A stretch of 64,000 nt of DNA from Bdellovibrionota bacterium FG-1 (GTDB lineage: Bacteria; Bdellovibrionota; UBA1018). The stretch covers positions 64,001 to 128,000 of the forward strand of contig JBBCAW010000013.1 in the NCBI GenBank assembly GCA_051382295.1, given 5' to 3'. How positions within the stretch are numbered: the first letter of the stretch is position 1; every line of letters starts with the position of its first letter. The position numbers and the translations under genes are program-made. Of this stretch, positions 17,119 through 42,630 are shown piece after piece. Below the pieces are notes generated by a model. The model saw only the letters and a program-made list of their open reading frames with translations. It was not told the DNA's origin and ran no database searches.

Positions 17119-18122
17119 AGCTGGGTCCGAAAATAATCCAAACTCTCTTGAAGGCCAGTTTTCAAATCCACGCGGGGCTCCCAGCCCAAAAGCTTTTGGG
17201 CCCGCGAAATATTGGGACACCGACGTTTAGGATCGTCCTCTCGCGCCGGCACATAAGTCAATTTCGAAGCGGTTTTGGAAAGCTCGATCACGGTCTTGGC
17301 AAAGTCCAACACCGTTCGCTCGACCGGATTGCCGATGTTCACGGGATGAGTGACGGAACTTTCAAAAAGACGAATAATGCCATCGACTAAATCCGAGACA
17401 TAGCAAAAACTGCGGGTTTGTAGGCCATCTCCGTGAAGTGTCAACGGCTGCCCCTTCAAGGCCTGAACGCAAAACTCAGGCACGATTCGACCGTCATCGG
17501 CTCTCATCCGCGGACCATAGGTATTGAAAATCCTGACCATACCGCCATTCAAAGCTTTTCGAGGACTTCCATCAGGGTGCCGTCCTACTCCACGAATCGC
17601 GGTGCTGACATAGGCCTCAGCAAAACGCTTGGTTTCGTCGTAACAGGCCCGAGGGCCTAAGGTATTCACATTGCCCCAATAGTCTTCACTCTGAGGATGA
17701 ACAAGCGGGTCACCATAGATTTCGGAAGTCGATGCCAATAAATAGCGTGCTCCATGGCGAAGCGCGAGGTCAACCGTTTGAGCGGTTCCGATGGAATCGA
17801 CGGCAAGAATTTCGAATGGAATTCGATCAAAATCCACCGGACTGGCCGGACAGGCAAAATGAAAAACACCCTGAAGTCCGTATTGCTCAATGAACGGGAA
17901 AAGAGTGTCTGCCAGCGGCAAACACACGTCACGTTCCACGAGTTGGAATCGAGGATGAGTCAAGACCTGTGAGAGATTTTCGCGCCGTCCAGTGAGAAAG
18001 TTATCCACTCCTGTGACCGCATAGCCTTTGCTCAGCAGCGCGTCCGTCAAATGAGATCCAATAAACCCAGCGGCACCCGTAATAATGACATGTTTTGGCA
18101 TGATGAGACTTTTCATTACCAC
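17115..18122 (-). CDS. UDP-glucuronate decarboxylase (UDP-xylose synthase)-like SDR
   Basis: TGAAGFIGSH, CPASP, STSEIYGDP..HPQ.E.YWGNVN and CYDETKR motifs. Confidence 0.9.
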   Translation of the reverse strand: MVMKSLIMPKHVIITGAAGFIGSHLTDALLSKGYAVTGVDNFLTGRRENLSQVLTHPRFQLVERDVCLPLADTLFPFIEQYGLQGVFHFACPASPVDFDRIPFEILAVDSIGTAQTVDLALRHGARYLLASTSEIYGDPLVHPQSEDYWGNVNTLGPRACYDETKRFAEAYVSTAIRGVGRHPDGSPRKALNGGMVRIFNTYGPRMRADDGRIVPEFCVQALKGQPLTLHGDGLQTRSFCYVSDLVDGIIRLFESSVTHPVNIGNPVERTVLDFAKTVIELSKTASKLTYVPAREDDPKRRCPNISRAQKLLGWEPRVDLKTGLQESLDYFRTQL

Positions 18123-36449: not shown

Positions 36450-37514
36450 TTGGCAATACCCAAGAAGGTATACGTTAGAGAAGAGATGATGATCGATTCA
36501 CCCAGCAAGCCCAGGCCTCCCGGAGCACGCAAAAAAAGCGTGGCTGAACGAATGCGCACGGGGGAACGCCCACCCGTGAGTCACGGTTACGTCAAAGGGT
36601 TTGATGGAACTAAGCTTTTTTATAGTACCGAAGGTCAAGGCAAGCCGCTGGTTTTTTGTTATGGACTCGTTTGTTCGAGTCTTCATTGGACCTACCAGAT
36701 CGAGCATTTTCAGCGCACTCACCAAACCATTTGGTTTGACTATCGCGGACATCAGAACTCTGAAACTCCAAAAGACATGAAGAGTCTCACGGTTCATAAC
36801 ATTGCTCGTGATCTGGGCACGGTTCTGGACGAACTCGGAATTAAGGAAACCGTCATTCTGGGGCACAGTATGGGCGTTAATGTTGTATTGGAGTTTTACC
36901 GCCAACAGCCGGAACGCGTGCTCGGGATGGTGCTTGCGAACGGGACCGCGACACGTCCGCTCGAAAATCTTTTTCGAAACAATGTCGCCCAAAGCGGCTT
37001 TCGCCTTCTGAAAAAGGCCTACGAAAAGTCCCCTGAAGCCGTTTCACTGCTTTGGCGAATGTCCAAGGGGAACGCCTTAGCCCGCACCGCTGTAACCCTG
37101 GGAGGTTTCAATGCGCATCTCACCCCAAAAGCGGATATCGAGCTTTATGTCGATCAAGTATCCGAAATGGACCCCGCCATACTGATTCATTTAATTGAAA
37201 ACTACGAGGAATACGACGCGACGGCATGGCTTCATACGATCCAAGTGCCCACGCTCATCTTGGCTGGCGAACAAGACAATATGACGCCGGTAGAGCAACA
37301 AGAACTCATGAACCAACTGATTCCTCGCAGTCGTTTTGAGCTGATCCGCCACGGCTCCCATTGTCCTCAGATGGATTTACCGGAACTAGTGAACCTCAAA
37401 ATTGAAAAATTTCTGGACGAGATCAACTATGGGTCACAGTCCATTCAGACCACGGGAAACGCCAATCCGACCACTGAGACGCATCCAAGCCCTGATCCAG
37501 AAGCGTCCGTCTAA
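36450..37514 (+). CDS. Alpha/beta hydrolase
   Basis: DYRGH, GHSMG nucleophile elbow, GEQD and SH triad. Start uncertain. Confidence 0.9.
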   Translation: MAIPKKVYVREEMMIDSPSKPRPPGARKKSVAERMRTGERPPVSHGYVKGFDGTKLFYSTEGQGKPLVFCYGLVCSSLHWTYQIEHFQRTHQTIWFDYRGHQNSETPKDMKSLTVHNIARDLGTVLDELGIKETVILGHSMGVNVVLEFYRQQPERVLGMVLANGTATRPLENLFRNNVAQSGFRLLKKAYEKSPEAVSLLWRMSKGNALARTAVTLGGFNAHLTPKADIELYVDQVSEMDPAILIHLIENYEEYDATAWLHTIQVPTLILAGEQDNMTPVEQQELMNQLIPRSRFELIRHGSHCPQMDLPELVNLKIEKFLDEINYGSQSIQTTGNANPTTETHPSPDPEASV

Positions 37515-39426
37515 ACGCCTCTAAACAGAGTTGACCATGGCACTTTCCTTCGCCCACATGAGTCACGGATAGGACCGCCTCAGGTGATTGAAGGCTACCG
37601 TTTTTCAACCGTTCAACCACCTGCTCTACGGTAATACCTAAGCAAGGGCAAAGGGAGTTTTCACCCTGAGTCGGCGCTGGGGACTCCGTCAGGCGAATCG
37701 CCATTCCACGATGAACTTTTTCCTGGCATGCCAATTTTTGCACTCCGTCAACCGTCACCTGACAAAGACCACAACTCCCATCTGGGCAATAAAGAACATC
37801 CTCAGGTCGGCTCTGGCCCGTTTCAAAAAGCGCCACCGTCACCGGAATCTTTTCGCGCACCATGCGACGCTCGCCATCTAGCGTAATATCGACTTTTTCA
37901 GCTGAAAGCTCGGAGCGGCTCACCGCTTTCATAAATATCTCATCCTCAACCGAGGCCGTCCTGGCGCGCTTAACCGACCGCGCTTCCCAAAGTAAATGGG
38001 TTGGAATATCCACCTGCACAAGCTGCGAAACCACCTCATCCGAGCCGTCGTTTAAGGTCTCGTGGACTCGATCTGAGGGCGCCTCCAAAATCTTGAGCAC
38101 TCGCACGCCCCCCATGCGCTCGCCCCGGCGATTAACGGCCACCGCAAATTCGCCTTCTTTCCAAGGTCGAACCCCACGCCAGGGCAAAACCAATGTCGAC
38201 ATAGCGTGCTCGCTATTTTCCTGCAACATCGTAATCGCGCCGCTCGGGCAAGCCTGAACACAAAGACCACAGCCCACGCATTTAGATTCGTTTAAAATTG
38301 CAGCCTCGCGGGGAATACGACCGATCTCGATGGCTCCATGCGGACAAATCGTCATGCAGACCTTGCAAGCAATCTGTTCAAAACACTCGACTGAAGCGAC
38401 CAATCGCTTTTTTTGCTCGGTTTGCGGAGTTCCGCTAAAAGCTCGAATGGCCTTAAAGTCCGTACTGGCCACCCATTTACCTTGATAAGCAGGCACAAAA
38501 GGCTCTTCACGATGGTGAAAAAAGTTTTTCAGTTTCATCCGAGCGCGCTTAAACACCCTCTCAATTTCGTCTTTTTTATCCCTATGCTCTTGAAGATCCG
38601 TGGCCAAGCCTTTGACAATCTTTCCGGCTAGCCAACGACAACGAGTTTCCTCAAGAACCCAGCCTTCGACATCCTCCACTTGGGATGCTCGTGCCGTCTG
38701 TTCCAGTTCAAAAAGCGAAGACCCTGGCGGGTGTTCGCGAATCCCTGCTAAATCCCGAAAAGGCCCGGCGGAAACCACCCTCGCCACCTCTAAAATGCGA
38801 AGTCCACGCGCATCTTGAATGCGCAACTCCCAAAGCAACGCGGCTTTAGGCGAAAGCTTAACGGGTTTAGCCTCGAGCAGTCTGCCCCCGAGCGACTCAA
38901 AACGCCGCTTTTCCACTTCCCATCCCGCAAACCGTTTCGCCCCCCATTGAGCAAAGGACTCAATACAGTAAACTTCGCCCACTCCCGATTCAAGCAAGGA
39001 GATGCCAAAACGAAGCGCCTCATTTCCCGTGCCCAAGATCGCAGTGGCCGGATCCCACTGGACCCGACTTTCTTTTCGCAAACGCTCCGCCGTAAAAAGG
39101 GGGATCAAGCCTTGAGATCTCCAACCCGAGAACGAATCAGGCAGGCAGGCGTTTTGGGTGACTTTAACGATTGCACGGGCATGAATTCGATGGATGCGCT
39201 TTTGGACATCTTCAAGCAGAACGATACCGCCGGTGCCTGGAAGTGGAATCACGCCTTTGACTGAAATCGATTCACCGCCAAAAAGACCGACTTCGAGCCC
39301 CATTTCCGCGCAAAGCGTGGAGAGGGCCCGCAGCCCCGCGGAAGGCCATAGTGATACGCGAGGGCCCGCCACAATCGCGACGTCAAAGCGTCCCTCTCGC
39401 ACGCTGAGCTCGCCTATGCCGTTCAC
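37423..39426 (-). CDS. Fused oxidoreductase: degenerate FAD/NAD domain + 2x[4Fe-4S] + [2Fe-2S] + BFD-like [2Fe-2S]
   Basis: ECFEQIACKVCMTICP, CVGCGLCVQACP, YCPDGSCGLC..LAC and CPC..GKCHGQLC; GTG start at 39426. Confidence 0.8.
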   Translation of the reverse strand: MNGIGELSVREGRFDVAIVAGPRVSLWPSAGLRALSTLCAEMGLEVGLFGGESISVKGVIPLPGTGGIVLLEDVQKRIHRIHARAIVKVTQNACLPDSFSGWRSQGLIPLFTAERLRKESRVQWDPATAILGTGNEALRFGISLLESGVGEVYCIESFAQWGAKRFAGWEVEKRRFESLGGRLLEAKPVKLSPKAALLWELRIQDARGLRILEVARVVSAGPFRDLAGIREHPPGSSLFELEQTARASQVEDVEGWVLEETRCRWLAGKIVKGLATDLQEHRDKKDEIERVFKRARMKLKNFFHHREEPFVPAYQGKWVASTDFKAIRAFSGTPQTEQKKRLVASVECFEQIACKVCMTICPHGAIEIGRIPREAAILNESKCVGCGLCVQACPSGAITMLQENSEHAMSTLVLPWRGVRPWKEGEFAVAVNRRGERMGGVRVLKILEAPSDRVHETLNDGSDEVVSQLVQVDIPTHLLWEARSVKRARTASVEDEIFMKAVSRSELSAEKVDITLDGERRMVREKIPVTVALFETGQSRPEDVLYCPDGSCGLCQVTVDGVQKLACQEKVHRGMAIRLTESPAPTQGENSLCPCLGITVEQVVERLKNGSLQSPEAVLSVTHVGEGKCHGQLCLEAFRRTLLDQGLDASQWSDWRFPWSEWTVTHS

Positions 39427-40691
39427 ACTCTCTCCTTCTCCCCCCCAAAACGCGCACAGGCGCTTCGGGAGTTTCGAACCACATCGGCCAACGGACCATC
39501 GCAACCGGGGATCACGTAAACTTGTTGATCGTCATCCAGGCCCAGACGCCAAGCTGCCTTTTGATCCCATTCGAAAATAGCTCGGGGCTTCATCGCTAAA
39601 ATAGAAAAGCGATCCCATTTCAAAAACGTATGACATAATTCGGACACCGCGCCAAACGACTCGGCGGATCCCCAGCTTTTTCCACCAGCCGGCGAACTCA
39701 CTTGATCTAACGGCACCAAAGCTCCCGCCCGCAACACGGCCAGGCGATTCAAATGTTGCAGGGTGGGCTGCGGAAAGCCTTCGACCTCAGCCCAAACCGC
39801 CATATCCCTAAAAATACCGATCACACTGGGATCCAACGACTCGCGCGACAAAAGCGACCACTGCTCCCAAAGTCTCACCCCCGTGGGCAAAACTGGCGCG
39901 ACTTCAGCCTTCTTTGCTTGTGCCAAAACCCATGGGCTCATTCGCGGGGTCCAAAACACCAGAGCCCCTTCCTTAAGTCGCGCGGTACGAAGGGTTTTTC
40001 CAGCATAAAAGCGCACGCCCCCCGGCATAAGCTCGGTTTGGCTAGCCTGACAAATGACCCCGGCAGGCCCCGCCCGTTCGCGTACAAATTCCAGGAGGCC
40101 ATTTCGATAACGGACCACATCCATGTCCGAAATCTTGGGAATCAATAGTCCGCGACAATTTCCTACGGGCCTGGAAAATCCTGGAAAACGGGTCTCCGCT
40201 TGTGCGCCCTCAAAGATTTGGGGTTTTAACCCAGCATCCGCGGCTTCCACATACAGTTCTTCCAAAAGTTCCCACGGCCAATCACGATCTCGCTCGTTCA
40301 AGGTAATCCAAAGTCGTGAACGACTCCGAACATGGGGGGCTTCAAAATCATGAAACCCCTGTCCCACCCCGCCGCCGGTCCAAAGTTCCACAGCCCCCGG
40401 AAAATCGGGCCGCAGCTCCTCGATCACGCGCTCCGGATCACTCCGCTTTAGACGTCCCGGCATTCGTCTTAAATTAATACTAGCGGCATCCTTATCGGGA
40501 CTCACCGGCCACATGGGATCCAGAGGCAACTCGGAGTCTTCTAAAAAAAAATCACGATCCGGATTCAGCAATAAAACGGTCTTCCCCTGGGCCATCAGAA
40601 AATTTGCCGCCACTAAAGGCGCTAAACCGGTCCCGACTAAAGCCACGTCGTAAACCCCGGCTACCGCAGAAAGCGCCCCCGAAGTTGTCAT
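39423..40691 (-). CDS. Divergent FAD-dependent oxidoreductase-like protein
   Basis: N-terminal YDVALVGTGLAP Rossmann-like motif; the remainder is divergent. Confidence 0.6.
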   Translation of the reverse strand: MTTSGALSAVAGVYDVALVGTGLAPLVAANFLMAQGKTVLLLNPDRDFFLEDSELPLDPMWPVSPDKDAASINLRRMPGRLKRSDPERVIEELRPDFPGAVELWTGGGVGQGFHDFEAPHVRSRSRLWITLNERDRDWPWELLEELYVEAADAGLKPQIFEGAQAETRFPGFSRPVGNCRGLLIPKISDMDVVRYRNGLLEFVRERAGPAGVICQASQTELMPGGVRFYAGKTLRTARLKEGALVFWTPRMSPWVLAQAKKAEVAPVLPTGVRLWEQWSLLSRESLDPSVIGIFRDMAVWAEVEGFPQPTLQHLNRLAVLRAGALVPLDQVSSPAGGKSWGSAESFGAVSELCHTFLKWDRFSILAMKPRAIFEWDQKAAWRLGLDDDQQVYVIPGCDGPLADVVRNSRSACARFGGEKERV

Positions 40692-41998
40692 ACGTTAAGA
40701 AAACCACCCATGACACGTCGAAGTGCCGTTTGCACTTGGGCTTTTTTGTATTCGCTATGCGCGCTATGGCCCTTTTCATTTTGGTCAGCGCTTTTCACAT
40801 CCATGATTTGCACTTCAAAAGGGTAAAAGAAACGAATTTCCCGCTGCAAATATTTGAGGTCAATTCGATCAATCCGCTTGGCGATTTCTTCTTGCGCGCC
40901 TTTTTGTTTCACGAGGCTTTTAAGCTCTCGAACATCATCGTACAAAGGATTATTAAGCTTAATCAACTGACGGCAAGTAAACTGAATCGCGCGATAAAAC
41001 TCACTCGAATGGGGATTTTCAGAACTTGTCACCGGGGGCAAACAGGCAGTCTCCAGCTCGAGGAGCAATTGCTCCTCGCTGATTTCTCCAGCATCGGCGC
41101 GTGCCAAAGACTCACCCAATTGGTTTTTAAAATTATCCAAGTCCACTAAGGTGTTGCGCGAGCGACTGGGCTTGATGTTGGGCGGCATCACAATCATTTT
41201 ATCTCTGAGATATTTGACGACCCGCAAGGCCCCGAGACGCGTCACAGAAACAAAACGAAGGCCAACCCGATCAAAAATATCCTCAGCCACATTTTCAGGC
41301 TTGTGCAACAGCTTCAAAATCGTTGAATCACGAGATTTTTTCGGCTTGGTTTCAAAGGCCACGAGGTCCACCCGCAAAGGATCGTTATCGTTTTCGCCCA
41401 AATAAAGCTGACCACTCTCCGTGCGATGAATGACTCTATAAAAGCGATCAAAGATCTGTTGCTGAAGATCGCCAAAATAAGAGCTACGCAGGTCTTTATC
41501 AATATGGGCGATCGTATGCATCACCTTGAGCAAACTACAGGCCCAATTACGCAATGCAATAGCTTGATCTAAGGCCTCACTCCGCGCTGACAACGGGTGG
41601 GTCAGGCTGGCCATCAAAAATAATTCACGAATATCCGCCATTTCAACCACTTGTCGCGGAATTTCTAATCTCAGACCATGAGGGTTGTCGGGCTGCAAAA
41701 AAAATTTACGCACGAAATTAAGAGCTTCATGAAAATTACCCATAACCTCAGCCCGTTCAATCGGGTTGTCCAAGTCATAACCATAACTCATGATAAAACG
41801 GTTCGCTTCGTCCAGGCTTTGGATCTGAAAACCTTGCGGCGTATCGATCGTCGACTTACCGCCGATAATCACATCCAGCACGTCCCAGCGAAAATCATAT
41901 TTGGTCCTAAAAAGAGATGTCGGAGGAGTCACATCCGAAAGACTAGCCCATTCGGGTTTGCGCCGGCAATGATCATCATTAGATGCAGTGCACCACAT
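40688..41998 (-). CDS. TIGR04552-like protein with a RelA/SpoT-type nucleotidyltransferase domain
   Basis: K.RDS..LKLLHK, IFDRVGLRF, YRAIQF, FEVQI and SAHSEYK motifs. Start uncertain (possibly GTG 41932). Confidence 0.8.
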   Translation of the reverse strand: MWCTASNDDHCRRKPEWASLSDVTPPTSLFRTKYDFRWDVLDVIIGGKSTIDTPQGFQIQSLDEANRFIMSYGYDLDNPIERAEVMGNFHEALNFVRKFFLQPDNPHGLRLEIPRQVVEMADIRELFLMASLTHPLSARSEALDQAIALRNWACSLLKVMHTIAHIDKDLRSSYFGDLQQQIFDRFYRVIHRTESGQLYLGENDNDPLRVDLVAFETKPKKSRDSTILKLLHKPENVAEDIFDRVGLRFVSVTRLGALRVVKYLRDKMIVMPPNIKPSRSRNTLVDLDNFKNQLGESLARADAGEISEEQLLLELETACLPPVTSSENPHSSEFYRAIQFTCRQLIKLNNPLYDDVRELKSLVKQKGAQEEIAKRIDRIDLKYLQREIRFFYPFEVQIMDVKSADQNEKGHSAHSEYKKAQVQTALRRVMGGFLNV

Positions 41999-42036: not shown

Positions 42037-42630
42037 ATGAAACTCTCAATGACTCAGCCTCATGCCTCAACCCCCCATCGTTTCCAAACCCCCCGAAGAC
42101 TCCTCCGCTGGGAAAAAGTCAGAGGTCCTCGCGCGATTTTGGCGATCGCGACCGGAACTGCTCTCGGAGCCGGACTCGTACCGCTCGCCCCAGGAACAGC
42201 AGGCACGCTCGCCGCTCTTCCGCTCGCGTATTTTACAAACGAGTGGCCCTGGCCTTTACGTATCGCTCTTTGGACCGCCTTGACCGCCGCCGGGACCTGG
42301 GCCGCCAAGGTTTTCGACGAACTCATGGGCACAAGCGACAATCAAAACATCGTGATGGATGAAGTGGTCGGCCTAGGGATCACTGCATGGACCGCTGGCC
42401 ATGACGTGACCTCTCTGCTAGTGGCCTTTGTGTTGTTTCGGTTTTTCGACATCCTCAAACCATTTCCGGTCCGAAATATAGACACCTGGTCCAAAAAGAA
42501 GGCATCGGAAAACACACCCCTTTCACAATGGTATGGCGGTTTTGGAGTCATGGCAGACGACTTGGTCGCAGGCCTCCAGGGGCTCTGCTGTATGCTTTTG
42601 CTGCAGTGGCTCCATATTCTACCTTCATGA
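42037..42630 (+). CDS. pgpA: Phosphatidylglycerophosphatase A
   Basis: APGTAGT, IVMDEVVG, FRFFDILKPFP and GVMADDLVAG motifs. Confidence 0.93.
   Translation: MKLSMTQPHASTPHRFQTPRRLLRWEKVRGPRAILAIATGTALGAGLVPLAPGTAGTLAALPLAYFTNEWPWPLRIALWTALTAAGTWAAKVFDELMGTSDNQNIVMDEVVGLGITAWTAGHDVTSLLVAFVLFRFFDILKPFPVRNIDTWSKKKASENTPLSQWYGGFGVMADDLVAGLQGLCCMLLLQWLHILPS

Follow-up and report, generated by a model that had tools for sequence, protein, structure and literature searches.

A three-gene run in Bdellovibrionota bacterium FG-1 places a predicted RelA/SpoT-fold pyrophosphokinase (gene 1) ahead of two proteins related to amino-acid dehydrogenase subunits, in which the flavin motifs are eroded and the iron-sulfur cysteines are conserved (genes 2 and 3). 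The preferred explanation, held tentatively and with somewhat less than even confidence, is that genes 2 and 3 encode a flavin-less iron-sulfur sensor pair that tunes the gene 1 enzyme. In this scheme gene 1 would likely use ATP to place pyrophosphate on a nucleotide acceptor, and the dehydrogenase-derived pair with its broken flavin motifs would likely act as a joint iron-sulfur/pyridine-nucleotide sensor of redox, iron, oxygen or NAD(H). The signal would reach gene 1 and modulate its activity, with the pair serving as a lineage-specific add-on regulator rather than as an obligatory subunit. The original prediction had proposed an undescribed module of this general type, and no published description of the trio was found in the literature.

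Organization of the locus

The window comprises the 64,000 nucleotides of contig JBBCAW010000013.1 that were analyzed. As first described, the three genes are on the minus strand and are joined by two 4-nt start/stop overlaps (Table 1). Homologues of gene 1 align only from approximately residue 24–34 and, counted from the closest start codon in 39 loci, are ~401–446 aa long; on this comparison the true start of gene 1 is probably GTG 41932 rather than the annotated ATG. Promoter and terminator scans gave counts near shuffle levels (6 versus 3.4 ± 1.8 and 5 versus 8.7 ± 2.9, respectively).

Table 1. Features of the three-gene locus and its flanks, with positions in the window.
Feature	Position	Strand	Remarks
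Alpha/beta hydrolase, convergent	36450..37514	+	Ancestral downstream flank; immediately 3' of TIGR04552 in L115 and G020
Gene 3, PDH alpha-gamma-delta fusion	37423..39426	-	667 aa, GTG start; Fer2_4 domain permuted
Gene 3, BFD-like four-Cys site	37525..37650	-	C593, C595, C629, C634
Gene 3, Fer2_4 [2Fe-2S] domain	37690..37899	-	C547, C552, C555, C567
Gene 3, beta domain	37957..38226	-	Matches post-ferredoxin region of intact dehydrogenase fusions
Gene 3, predicted 2x[4Fe-4S] ferredoxin	38248..38385	-	Eight Cys (C348-C393)
Gene 3, glutathione/thioredoxin-reductase-like two-Rossmann unit	38602..39399	-	NAD-type motif (GTGN..E156) retained, FAD motifs disrupted
Gene 2-gene 3 overlap and upstream run	39423..39448	-	GTGA overlap (39423-39426); purine-rich Shine-Dalgarno-like run upstream of gene 3
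Gene 2, DAO-clan protein	39423..40691	-	422 aa; sarcosine oxidase/proline dehydrogenase beta-like, FAD motifs eroded
Gene 2, altered dinucleotide fold	40530..40634	-	GxGxAP, N43-P44, acidic DxDFFxEDSE loop
Gene 1-gene 2 overlap	40688..40691	-	ATGA stop/start
Gene 1, TIGR04552/TIGR04562 protein	40688..41998	-	436 aa; annotated ATG 41998
Gene 1, catalytic E395-V-Q397 and H414..Y417-K418	40745..40816	-	
Gene 1, acceptor loop N328..Y335-R-A-I-Q339	40976..41017	-	Tyr kept; guanine-recognizing His replaced by Gln
Gene 1, helical hairpin insertion	41021..41140	-	Residues ~287-326; phylum-wide; deleted in G020 (also without genes 2-3)
Gene 1, ATP/Mg side	41255..41347	-	K218, K221, S225, K229, D243, G246, R248; aligned to RelP and RelSeq
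Gene 1, H161xxxH165 in N-terminal helical domain	41504..41518	-	Invariant (78/78, 86/86); C154 mostly kept
pgpA, divergent	42037..42630	+	Ancestral upstream flank; also adjoins TIGR04552 in lineages without genes 2-3

Gene 1 is a predicted RelA/SpoT-fold protein

Gene 1 belongs to the uncharacterized TIGR04552/TIGR04562 family, exemplified by Myxococcus xanthus MXAN_4858 and Bdellovibrio NC01 DOE51_RS08710, and its scores of 372.5 and 389.2 bits exceed the curated HMM cut-offs of 125 and 140. A RelA/SpoT synthetase fold is predicted from its structural model. VIA matches ranked 1–8 were all RSH synthetases (Z 7.1–9.4), among them 8acu (Z 9.4, rmsd 2.9, 137 aligned) and 6fgk (Z 9.2, rmsd 3.3, 154 aligned), and the first unrelated match lay below this set at Z 6.9; CapRel and Tas1 (Z 6.0 and 5.9) ranked under Rel, RelP and RelQ. 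A wide sequence profile matched RelP (E 0.005). In the Foldseek comparison suggested with the original prediction, the best rows were RSH proteins with E values of at least 0.038, and nothing was matched at E ≤ 0.001. Searching PDB sequences with the in-order profile returned only E 0.15–0.68, and the score with Pfam PF04607 (RelA_SpoT), 18.4 bits, is under the gathering score of 27. The host genome also encodes a canonical long Rel; a global HHalign alignment of gene 1 with this protein was not obtained and local pieces aligned weakly.

The anticipated lack of hydrolase, TGS and ACT domains was borne out in HMM family searches, in which the HD, TGS and ACT families gave no match. The large insertions that had been noted proved to be two helical segments (residues ~285–327 and ~346–388) that accompany an N-terminal helical domain. 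The first of these was considered as a partner-specific docking site, which was rejected as a general role since the hairpin is present in lineages that lack the partners. No fused form of gene 1 (771–2200 aa) was detected at E ≤ 1e-5, a weak line of evidence; no relative was found on viral contigs, and an initial metagenome scan, for which one distant protein was the query, gave no match.

The synthetase motifs singled out in the original prediction (K221/S225/K229, D243..G246.R248, Y335.AIQ339, E395VQ397 and H414..Y417K418) are all present and show little or no variation among 86 in-order rows. The ATP/Mg residues are invariant both in these (86/86) and in phylum-wide rows (78/78), and gene 1 is probably catalytically active. 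The canonical Syn1 Arg is replaced by P219, beside the invariant K218. The acceptor side differs further: Q339 occupies the Syn3 His position in 86/86 in-order rows, the Syn4 Arg is absent with M, V, L, F or Y at position 399, and the Y335/Q339 side is variable across the 78 phylum-wide rows. Syn3 SxH and Syn4 IR are given as the guanosine-recognizing motifs in PMC12226406. Because the guanine-recognizing His is replaced by Gln, the product of gene 1 may be other than ppGpp. A ppGpp-type product is possible though not probable, another nucleotide is rather doubtful, and an RNA end or other acceptor is unlikely. The H161xxxH165 motif with C154 is a possible ligand or metal site.

Genes 2 and 3 are remodeled dehydrogenase modules

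Comparison with intact relatives upheld the sarcosine/proline-dehydrogenase ancestry of genes 2 and 3 with eroded flavin motifs. Membership of gene 2 in the DAO clan is indicated by PF01266 matches in 12/96 members and by a profile match of 97.9% (E 2e-12). The third Gly of the FAD motif is found in 0/86 gene 2 rows, and invariant N43-P44 stands where an acidic residue is expected (Asn in 86/86; D/E in 29/29 control DAO proteins). These changes tip the balance slightly towards loss of FAD binding by gene 2; altered FAD binding is also possible because G20, G22 and G399 are retained.

Gene 3 comprises, in order, a pseudo-reductase, 2x[4Fe-4S], beta, [2Fe-2S] and BFD-like domains (model pLDDT 89.7). 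Sequence comparison shows its descent from PDH2-type (alpha-gamma-delta-beta) dehydrogenases: intact single-chain fusions of 1160–1190 aa, which were found in six genomes of the phylum, matched gene 3 with 99.9% HHalign probability (E 1e-32). Relative to these fusions GAGPAG is broken, and the acidic residue, the GGQL loop and the CTG and AGD motifs are gone, and gene 3 has fairly likely ceased to bind FAD. The NAD-type motif is preserved, GGGNIG/EA of the fusions corresponding to GTGN/CIE, with G132 in 40/40, N135 in 39/40 and W169 in 39/40 sequences. The Rossmann erosion initially ascribed to both proteins is confirmed in the FAD motifs, and gene 3 keeps its NAD-type site. The Fe-S cysteine motifs are intact as predicted, all 16 Cys columns being kept wherever aligned in 78 triads. 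Gene 2 showed no significant similarity to the DAO segment within the intact fusions above that to DAO proteins in general, and a shared donor operon for genes 2 and 3 is therefore not supported.

A relative of gene 3 that is also eroded and has the same permuted order is present in genome G098, in which TIGR04552 was not found. Plasmid tblastn and short-protein searches with gene 3 returned generic ferredoxins only, except for one 286-aa partial close relative.

The trio is conserved in one order

TIGR04552 is a single-copy core gene present in 235/251 genomes of the phylum, across which no conserved neighbor, including any antitoxin-like gene, was identified. The co-location of the three genes on which the original prediction was staked holds within one order but not in the loci examined outside it. 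Genes 1 and 3 are co-oriented and close together in 53/60 sampled related genomes (in another 5/60 the locus is truncated at a contig end or incomplete), and genes 2 and 3 directly follow gene 1 in 17/19 in-clade metagenome loci. Neither neighbor accompanies TIGR04552 in 38 named loci outside the order or in 61 out-of-clade metagenome loci; of the latter, 49 have at least 600 bases downstream. The gene 1-gene 2 overlap occurs in 31/40 loci, with a widest gap of 19 nt, and that of genes 2 and 3 in 32/39.

The flanking genes are adjacent in 28/40 and 30/39 loci (70–77% syntenic). The pair is an insertion because pgpA and the hydrolase are the ancestral flanks. A quick IQ-TREE tree of gene 1, with SH-aLRT support only, shows one gain of genes 2 and 3 (SH-aLRT 91) and two nested joint losses, in the G020 and G023 lineages. 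In the single G020 case gene 1 sits on a long branch (0.93, against a median of 0.3) and has lost the hairpin, and G023 retains an ordinary gene 1. The distance correlation of gene 2 with gene 3 is 0.96 and that of gene 1 with gene 3 only 0.70–0.78, in pairs that are not independent; housekeeping neighbors correlate with gene 3 at 0.62–0.80, like gene 1. Complex prediction for gene 1 (residues 24–436) with gene 2 (10–420) gave no verdict (score 0.00 in two runs, controls not folded) and counts neither for nor against contact.

Discussion

The products of genes 2 and 3 very likely associate in a complex. The pair would need another job because its ancestral chemistry appears impossible and yet it has been kept across 12 families. 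The persistence of the pair behind gene 1, the single gain with two joint losses and the altered gene 1 of G020 also favor a regulatory link. Against such a link, gene 1 is partner-free in the loci examined outside the order, is ordinary in G023 after loss of the pair and shows no special rate covariation with gene 3. These observations, with the high local synteny, the insertion between ancestral flanks, the tight rate coupling of gene 2 to gene 3 and the G098 protein, suit a hitchhiking operon, in which a self-contained non-canonical oxidoreductase or electron carrier landed once behind gene 1 and is held there only by its promoter and ribosomes, with no functional contact. Dependence on the gene 1 promoter could by itself keep the gene order fixed. 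This explanation is a possible one, short of probable: in 60 genomes and 80 metagenome loci no fully assembled case had genes 2 and 3 separated from gene 1, overlap-type spacing is retained in 12 families, and an independent catalytic role is hard to name once the FAD motifs are lost.

Information might instead flow in the reverse direction, with gene 3 (through its retained nucleotide site) or gene 2 (through its remodeled site) binding or chemically altering the product or substrate of gene 1, so that the trio would be a signal plus receptor or a short pathway. Alpha subunits of the dye-linked proline dehydrogenase-type family bind ATP or NAD+ non-catalytically, and both the preserved second Rossmann motif of gene 3 and the new N-P motif and acidic loop of gene 2 fit such a role; retention of gene 1 throughout the phylum without this receptor makes it unlikely. 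It is decidedly unlikely that gene 1 makes no messenger and either adds pyrophosphate to an RNA end or another acceptor or serves as an inactive scaffold, with genes 2 and 3 unrelated or acting as an inhibitor as in toxSAS modules. The loss of both the Syn3 His and the Syn4 Arg, the canonical long Rel already in the genome and the RSH-fold tRNA pyrophosphokinases described in PMC11782079 are in its favor. However, invariant catalytic residues argue against a scaffold, single-copy core status without a conserved antitoxin-like neighbor against a toxin, and the low ranking of CapRel and Tas1 against a toxSAS-like protein.

Alarmone synthetases are known to respond to ribosomes, protein partners, allosteric nucleotides and antitoxins. 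If the sensor-pair explanation is true, an Fe-S pseudo-dehydrogenase dedicated to this task would add a type of input not yet on that list. More speculatively, and on balance doubtfully, TIGR04552 may be an overlooked phylum-wide class of RelA/SpoT-fold pyrophosphokinases that makes a non-(p)ppGpp signal in predatory bacteria, and that in one order is directly switched by a dead amino-acid dehydrogenase recruited as a four-cluster iron-sulfur/NAD sensor; alarmone-type signaling would then be under redox control through a pseudo-enzyme complex. Regardless of the partners, the gene 1 family is near-universal in Bdellovibrionota. The developmental phenotype of the M. xanthus member is gliding-gene-like, a one-base deletion in a Bdellovibrio member exceeded 75% in one evolved line, and the identity of the family's product is open to direct testing in two predators with tractable genetics.

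Comparison with known systems

Among the loci examined, the trio is confined to one large group (order) of predatory-type Bdellovibrionota. Other TIGR04552/TIGR04562 genes adjoin an acyltransferase in Bdellovibrio-type loci and varied neighbors elsewhere, whereas gene 1 here leads a three-gene run. With RelP and RelQ, both small alarmone synthetases, and the SYN domain of Rel/RelA/SpoT, gene 1 shares the predicted fold, the K/S/K ATP helix, the catalytic Asp and Glu and H..YK, and, like the small enzymes, has no hydrolase, TGS or ACT domain. It differs from RelP and RelQ in being approximately twice the size, with the additional N-terminal domain and insertions, and from RSH proteins in the replaced Syn1, Syn3 and Syn4 residues and its score below the Pfam cut-off. 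The family was not among the Bdellovibrio RSHs in two RSH surveys. Identity with bdRel was rejected, as the bdRel rows examined come from Betaproteobacteria and Rel is the sole entry for B. bacteriovorus.

Gene 1 resembles the toxSAS proteins FaRel2, CapRel, Tas1 and Apk2 in fold class, in its non-guanosine acceptor loop and in the potential regulators beside it. In contrast to these, it is a single-copy core gene with no phylum-wide antitoxin, its structural scores with CapRel and Tas1 are lower than those with Rel, RelP and RelQ, and it lacks the Apk-type GxN and YH signatures as set out in PMC12226406. A toxSAS module is defined by a cognate antitoxin beside the synthetase, whereas the partners of gene 1 were lost in G020 and G023.

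Genes 2 and 3 have a module set in common with dye-linked L-proline dehydrogenase alpha-beta-gamma-delta (PdhA/F/X/B), the Pyrococcus horikoshii alpha4beta4 enzyme (1y56) and heterotetrameric sarcosine oxidase (2gag), namely a DAO subunit, a two-Rossmann reductase, 2x[4Fe-4S] with beta domain, Fer2_4 and a BFD-like domain; 1y56_A and 2gag_A align over the whole gene 3 range. The DAO-clan subunit and all Cys sets of these dehydrogenases are present, but the intact FAD sites of the DAO and alpha subunits are not, the motifs being lost in both gene 2 and gene 3. Compared with dye-linked proline dehydrogenase, Fer2_4 of gene 3 has moved behind the ferredoxin and the DAO gene comes first.

Three overlapping genes and their flanks

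The three open reading frames, both 4-nt overlaps and every motif quoted in the original prediction, which described a RelA/SpoT-like synthetase (gene 1) joined to a degenerate flavoprotein (gene 2) and an Fe-S protein (gene 3), were all found in the window sequence. Because alignments of gene 1 homologues open only at residue 24-34, counted from ATG 41998, the gene probably starts at an internal GTG. The trio is flanked on one side by divergent pgpA-recA and on the other by a convergent alpha/beta hydrolase-HTH-recG-greA block, in which recA, recG and greA were named from sequence and from Pfam matches of homologues. The hydrolase gene shares 92 bases with the 3′ end of gene 3, and a comparable overlap recurs among many relatives. 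Among named relatives, those nearest to gene 1 come from MAGs labelled as Bdellovibrionota-type (Oligoflexia, Bacteriovoracaceae, Bdellovibrionales).

Coordinates of the trio (window positions) and of related features at other loci
Feature	Position	Strand	Description
Gene 1	40688..41998	-	TIGR04552/TIGR04562 protein, RelA/SpoT-synthetase-type
Probable gene 1 start	41932	-	GTG
Gene 1/gene 2 overlap	40688-40691		ATGA
Gene 2	39423..40691	-	DAO-clan protein
Gene 2/gene 3 overlap	39423-39426		GTGA
Gene 3	37423..39426	-	Reductase-like and Fe-S domains
Alpha/beta hydrolase	36450-37514	+	Convergent with gene 3
Second RelA_SpoT protein	L033:1330-2220 (G000:C58 ~17320-17646)	-	296 aa
TIGR04552 of lineage G020	L154:6454-7596	+	Helical hairpin deleted
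Gap between gene 2 and gene 3	L089:2626-3525		~900 bases
Reductase-like protein of genome G098	L261:5041-6411	-	457 aa

Gene 1 resembles RSH synthetases

Gene 1 was placed in the TIGR04552/TIGR04562 family by HMM search; its match to Pfam RelA_SpoT is sub-threshold. The best eight VIA matches of its AlphaFold2 model (pLDDT 79, pTM 0.72) were Rel, RelP, SpoT, RelQ, RelA and exported SAS, with 132-164 residues of the RSH synthetase domains aligned at Z 9.4 to 7.1 and rmsd 2.9-3.8, followed by other nucleotidyltransferases at Z ≤6.9. As these Z values are modest, the RSH fold call is based on consistency of rank together with the motifs. The Foldseek comparison that had been suggested also ranked the RSH family first, but without significance. 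An 18-row phylum-wide profile of gene 1 matched RelP with an E of 0.005. TIGR04552 is present in 235 of 251 genomes of the phylum, nearly always as a single match, and was found in none of 14 control genomes. The genome that carries gene 1 encodes a canonical long Rel as well. A second, stand-alone RelA_SpoT domain in this genome (42.9 bits, above cut-off) is part of a protein whose N-terminus is signal peptide-like by eye, and which resembles an exported small alarmone synthetase, here in a predatory-type bacterium.

Among 78 gene 1 sequences surveyed (40 from the bacterial order of the window's genome and 38 from outside it), K218, K221, S225, K229, D243, G246, R248, N282, N328, E395, Y417 and K418 were invariant, and Q397 and H414 were kept in 77. 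When aligned, the invariant residues match the ATP-donor and Mg residues described for FaRel2/RelP in PMC11782079. An HxxxH motif is invariant on the N-terminal helical domain. On the acceptor side, position Y335 is Y or F. The Syn3 SxH histidine, to which PMC12226406 assigns guanosine recognition, is replaced by Q in all 86 in-order rows; outside the order the residue is Q, K or N. In that study, swapping motifs did not by itself switch specificity, and the product of gene 1 is therefore not readable from sequence. Gene 1 is most likely an ATP-dependent pyrophosphokinase, a predicted activity, with a non-standard acceptor site.

Genes 2 and 3 have lost flavin-binding motifs

Gene 2 was assigned to the DAO clan with a language-model score of 0.97, an E of 5e-4 against sarcosine oxidase and a 97.9% profile match to 29 DAO proteins of the same order; PF01266 was matched by 12 of 96 family members. 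The family is small (155 matches among 1.84 billion representatives). In all 86 rows the third Gly of GxGxxG is missing and the ribose-binding acidic residue is replaced by Asn. D/E was kept in 29 of 29 control DAO proteins, which were picked for GxGxxG and so are a control for the acidic residue only. Gene 2 still carries G20, G22 and G399.

The gene 3 model (pLDDT 89.7) has Fe-S domains after a two-Rossmann reductase unit, and aligned over its full range with the alpha chains of P. horikoshii proline dehydrogenase and sarcosine oxidase. When the phylum was searched, intact relatives were identified in six genomes (L255-L260) as single-chain Fer2_4/Pyr_redox_2/2x4Fe-4S/BFD/DAO fusions of 1162-1188 aa, in which the motifs are intact and all proline-dehydrogenase-type subunits are joined; their best solved-structure matches are both 1y56 chains. 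In three of these loci a glycosyltransferase gene lies no more than two genes downstream. Gene 3 aligned with the fusions by profile at 99.9%, and compared with them its FAD motifs are broken or deleted whereas an NAD-type motif is retained. Sixteen Cys columns are complete across 78 triads, apart from two rows that are truncated within the final four. The proposal that the Rossmann motifs are eroded and the Fe-S cysteines intact was borne out, for the FAD motifs of both proteins and the cysteines of gene 3. Gene 3 is predicted to hold four clusters; its BFD-like site could hold a single iron, as in 1y56. In genome G098, an eroded reductase is combined with a beta domain and a C-terminal 2Fe-2S domain in the permuted order of gene 3, without 4Fe-4S cysteines.

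Distribution and history of the trio

Co-location in other genomes, the absence of which would have refuted the original prediction, was observed in 53 of 60 sampled relatives, where gene 1 and gene 3 are co-oriented and near each other on one contig. The remaining seven comprise three with the genes on separate contigs that end at or near them, two with gene 1 only and two with gene 3 only, the last being incomplete genomes (56% and 72%) with gene 3 at a contig end. The order 1-2-3 with tight spacing was seen in 40 of 40 regions read in detail, drawn from the co-located set. At L089 a gap separates genes 2 and 3, and gene 3 is split in two pieces. The gene 3 profile matched 84 of 86 genomes of the order and none of 10 from other orders of the class. 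Neither gene 2 nor gene 3 adjoined TIGR04552 in 38 named loci outside the order, from which L114 was omitted as it ends at a contig edge. When 80 metagenome loci were scanned, gene 2 lay next to gene 1 in 17 of the 19 that share 59% identity or more with members of the order (two of the 17 being near-copies of genomes already counted), and was absent beside TIGR04552 in the other 61. Both exceptions belong to the G023 lineage and have 5 kb of readable DNA downstream.

Two in-order lineages have gene 1 without its partners: gene 1 is followed directly by the hydrolase in G020 (97% complete) and by the HTH gene in G023 (89% complete), and genes 2-3 were not detected at any other place in these two genomes. 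The TIGR04552 protein of G020, a 2.0 Mb genome, has a cleanly deleted helical hairpin of ~33 residues and a long branch. At L115, a partner-less TIGR04552 lies between the same pgpA and hydrolase flanks; genes 2-3 were therefore inserted into an older locus. Rooted at its midpoint, a quick ML tree built from 90 gene 1 proteins requires three changes, one gain of genes 2-3 (SH-aLRT 91) and two nested losses.

At seven Bdellovibrio-type loci (L139, L140, L143, L145, L150, L153, L172), TIGR04552 is without the second insertion and carries F/K in its acceptor loop; it overlaps a gene of ~245 aa downstream, after an unknown gene of ~220 aa. The ~245 aa gene is an acyltransferase (PF01553) in the three that were scanned (L140, L145, L153). 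With pgpA adjoining TIGR04552 in other lineages, a link to phospholipids is possible.

Discussion

Genes 2 and 3 likely form one complex. The complex has likely lost flavin-dependent amino-acid oxidation, but would remain able to store or transfer electrons and to bind either a pyridine or an adenine nucleotide. Tentatively, it is a putative sensor that tunes gene 1. Several controls tell against a sensor. The neighbourhood is conservative, with the hydrolase adjacent in 28 of 40 regions and pgpA in 30 of 39. Pairwise distances of genes 2 and 3 correlate at 0.96, but the gene 1-gene 3 distance correlation (0.70-0.78; kin are not independent in either) is no higher than that of recG, hydrolase, pgpA and recA with gene 3 (0.62-0.80), and TIGR04552 was not found in G098, which encodes the permuted gene 3-like protein. 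That genes 2-3 merely share expression with gene 1 is only a little less probable than the sensor. It is unlikely that the pair acts downstream of the product of gene 1, and slightly less likely still that gene 1 is RNA-targeting or inactive.

The trio is real and order-wide, and no description of it, or of an activity for TIGR04552, was found in the full-text literature, in which subscription papers are mostly uncovered. The M. xanthus 'SYNTH' entry YP_633016.1 presumably lies near MXAN_4858, judged by accession interpolation and locus tags. If the two are the same, an automatic survey had already flagged the RSH link of the TIGR04552 family in 2011, and this was not followed up. MXAN_4858 is called uncharacterised, with a gliding-gene-like fitness pattern (bioRxiv 10.64898/2026.08.28.747804), and a one-base deletion in a TIGR04552 gene is among mutations >75% in one line (PMC9888234). 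Among the rows listed, PMC3153485 gives Rel only for B. bacteriovorus and one unclassified 'SYNTH' protein each for M. xanthus and Sorangium; among those of PMC7229694, B. exovorus, Bacteriovorax BAL6_X and H. marinus have Rel only and M. xanthus an extra Rel[S].

The regulatory logic, a putative link from the gene 2-3 pair to gene 1, would be new if true. Matching of fusions to subunits relies on the domain content of PdhF and PdhX. The intact fusions share their module set with alpha-beta-gamma-delta proline dehydrogenase (subunit names from PMC4364671), whereas in gene 3 the Fer2_4 domain is relocated behind the ferredoxin.
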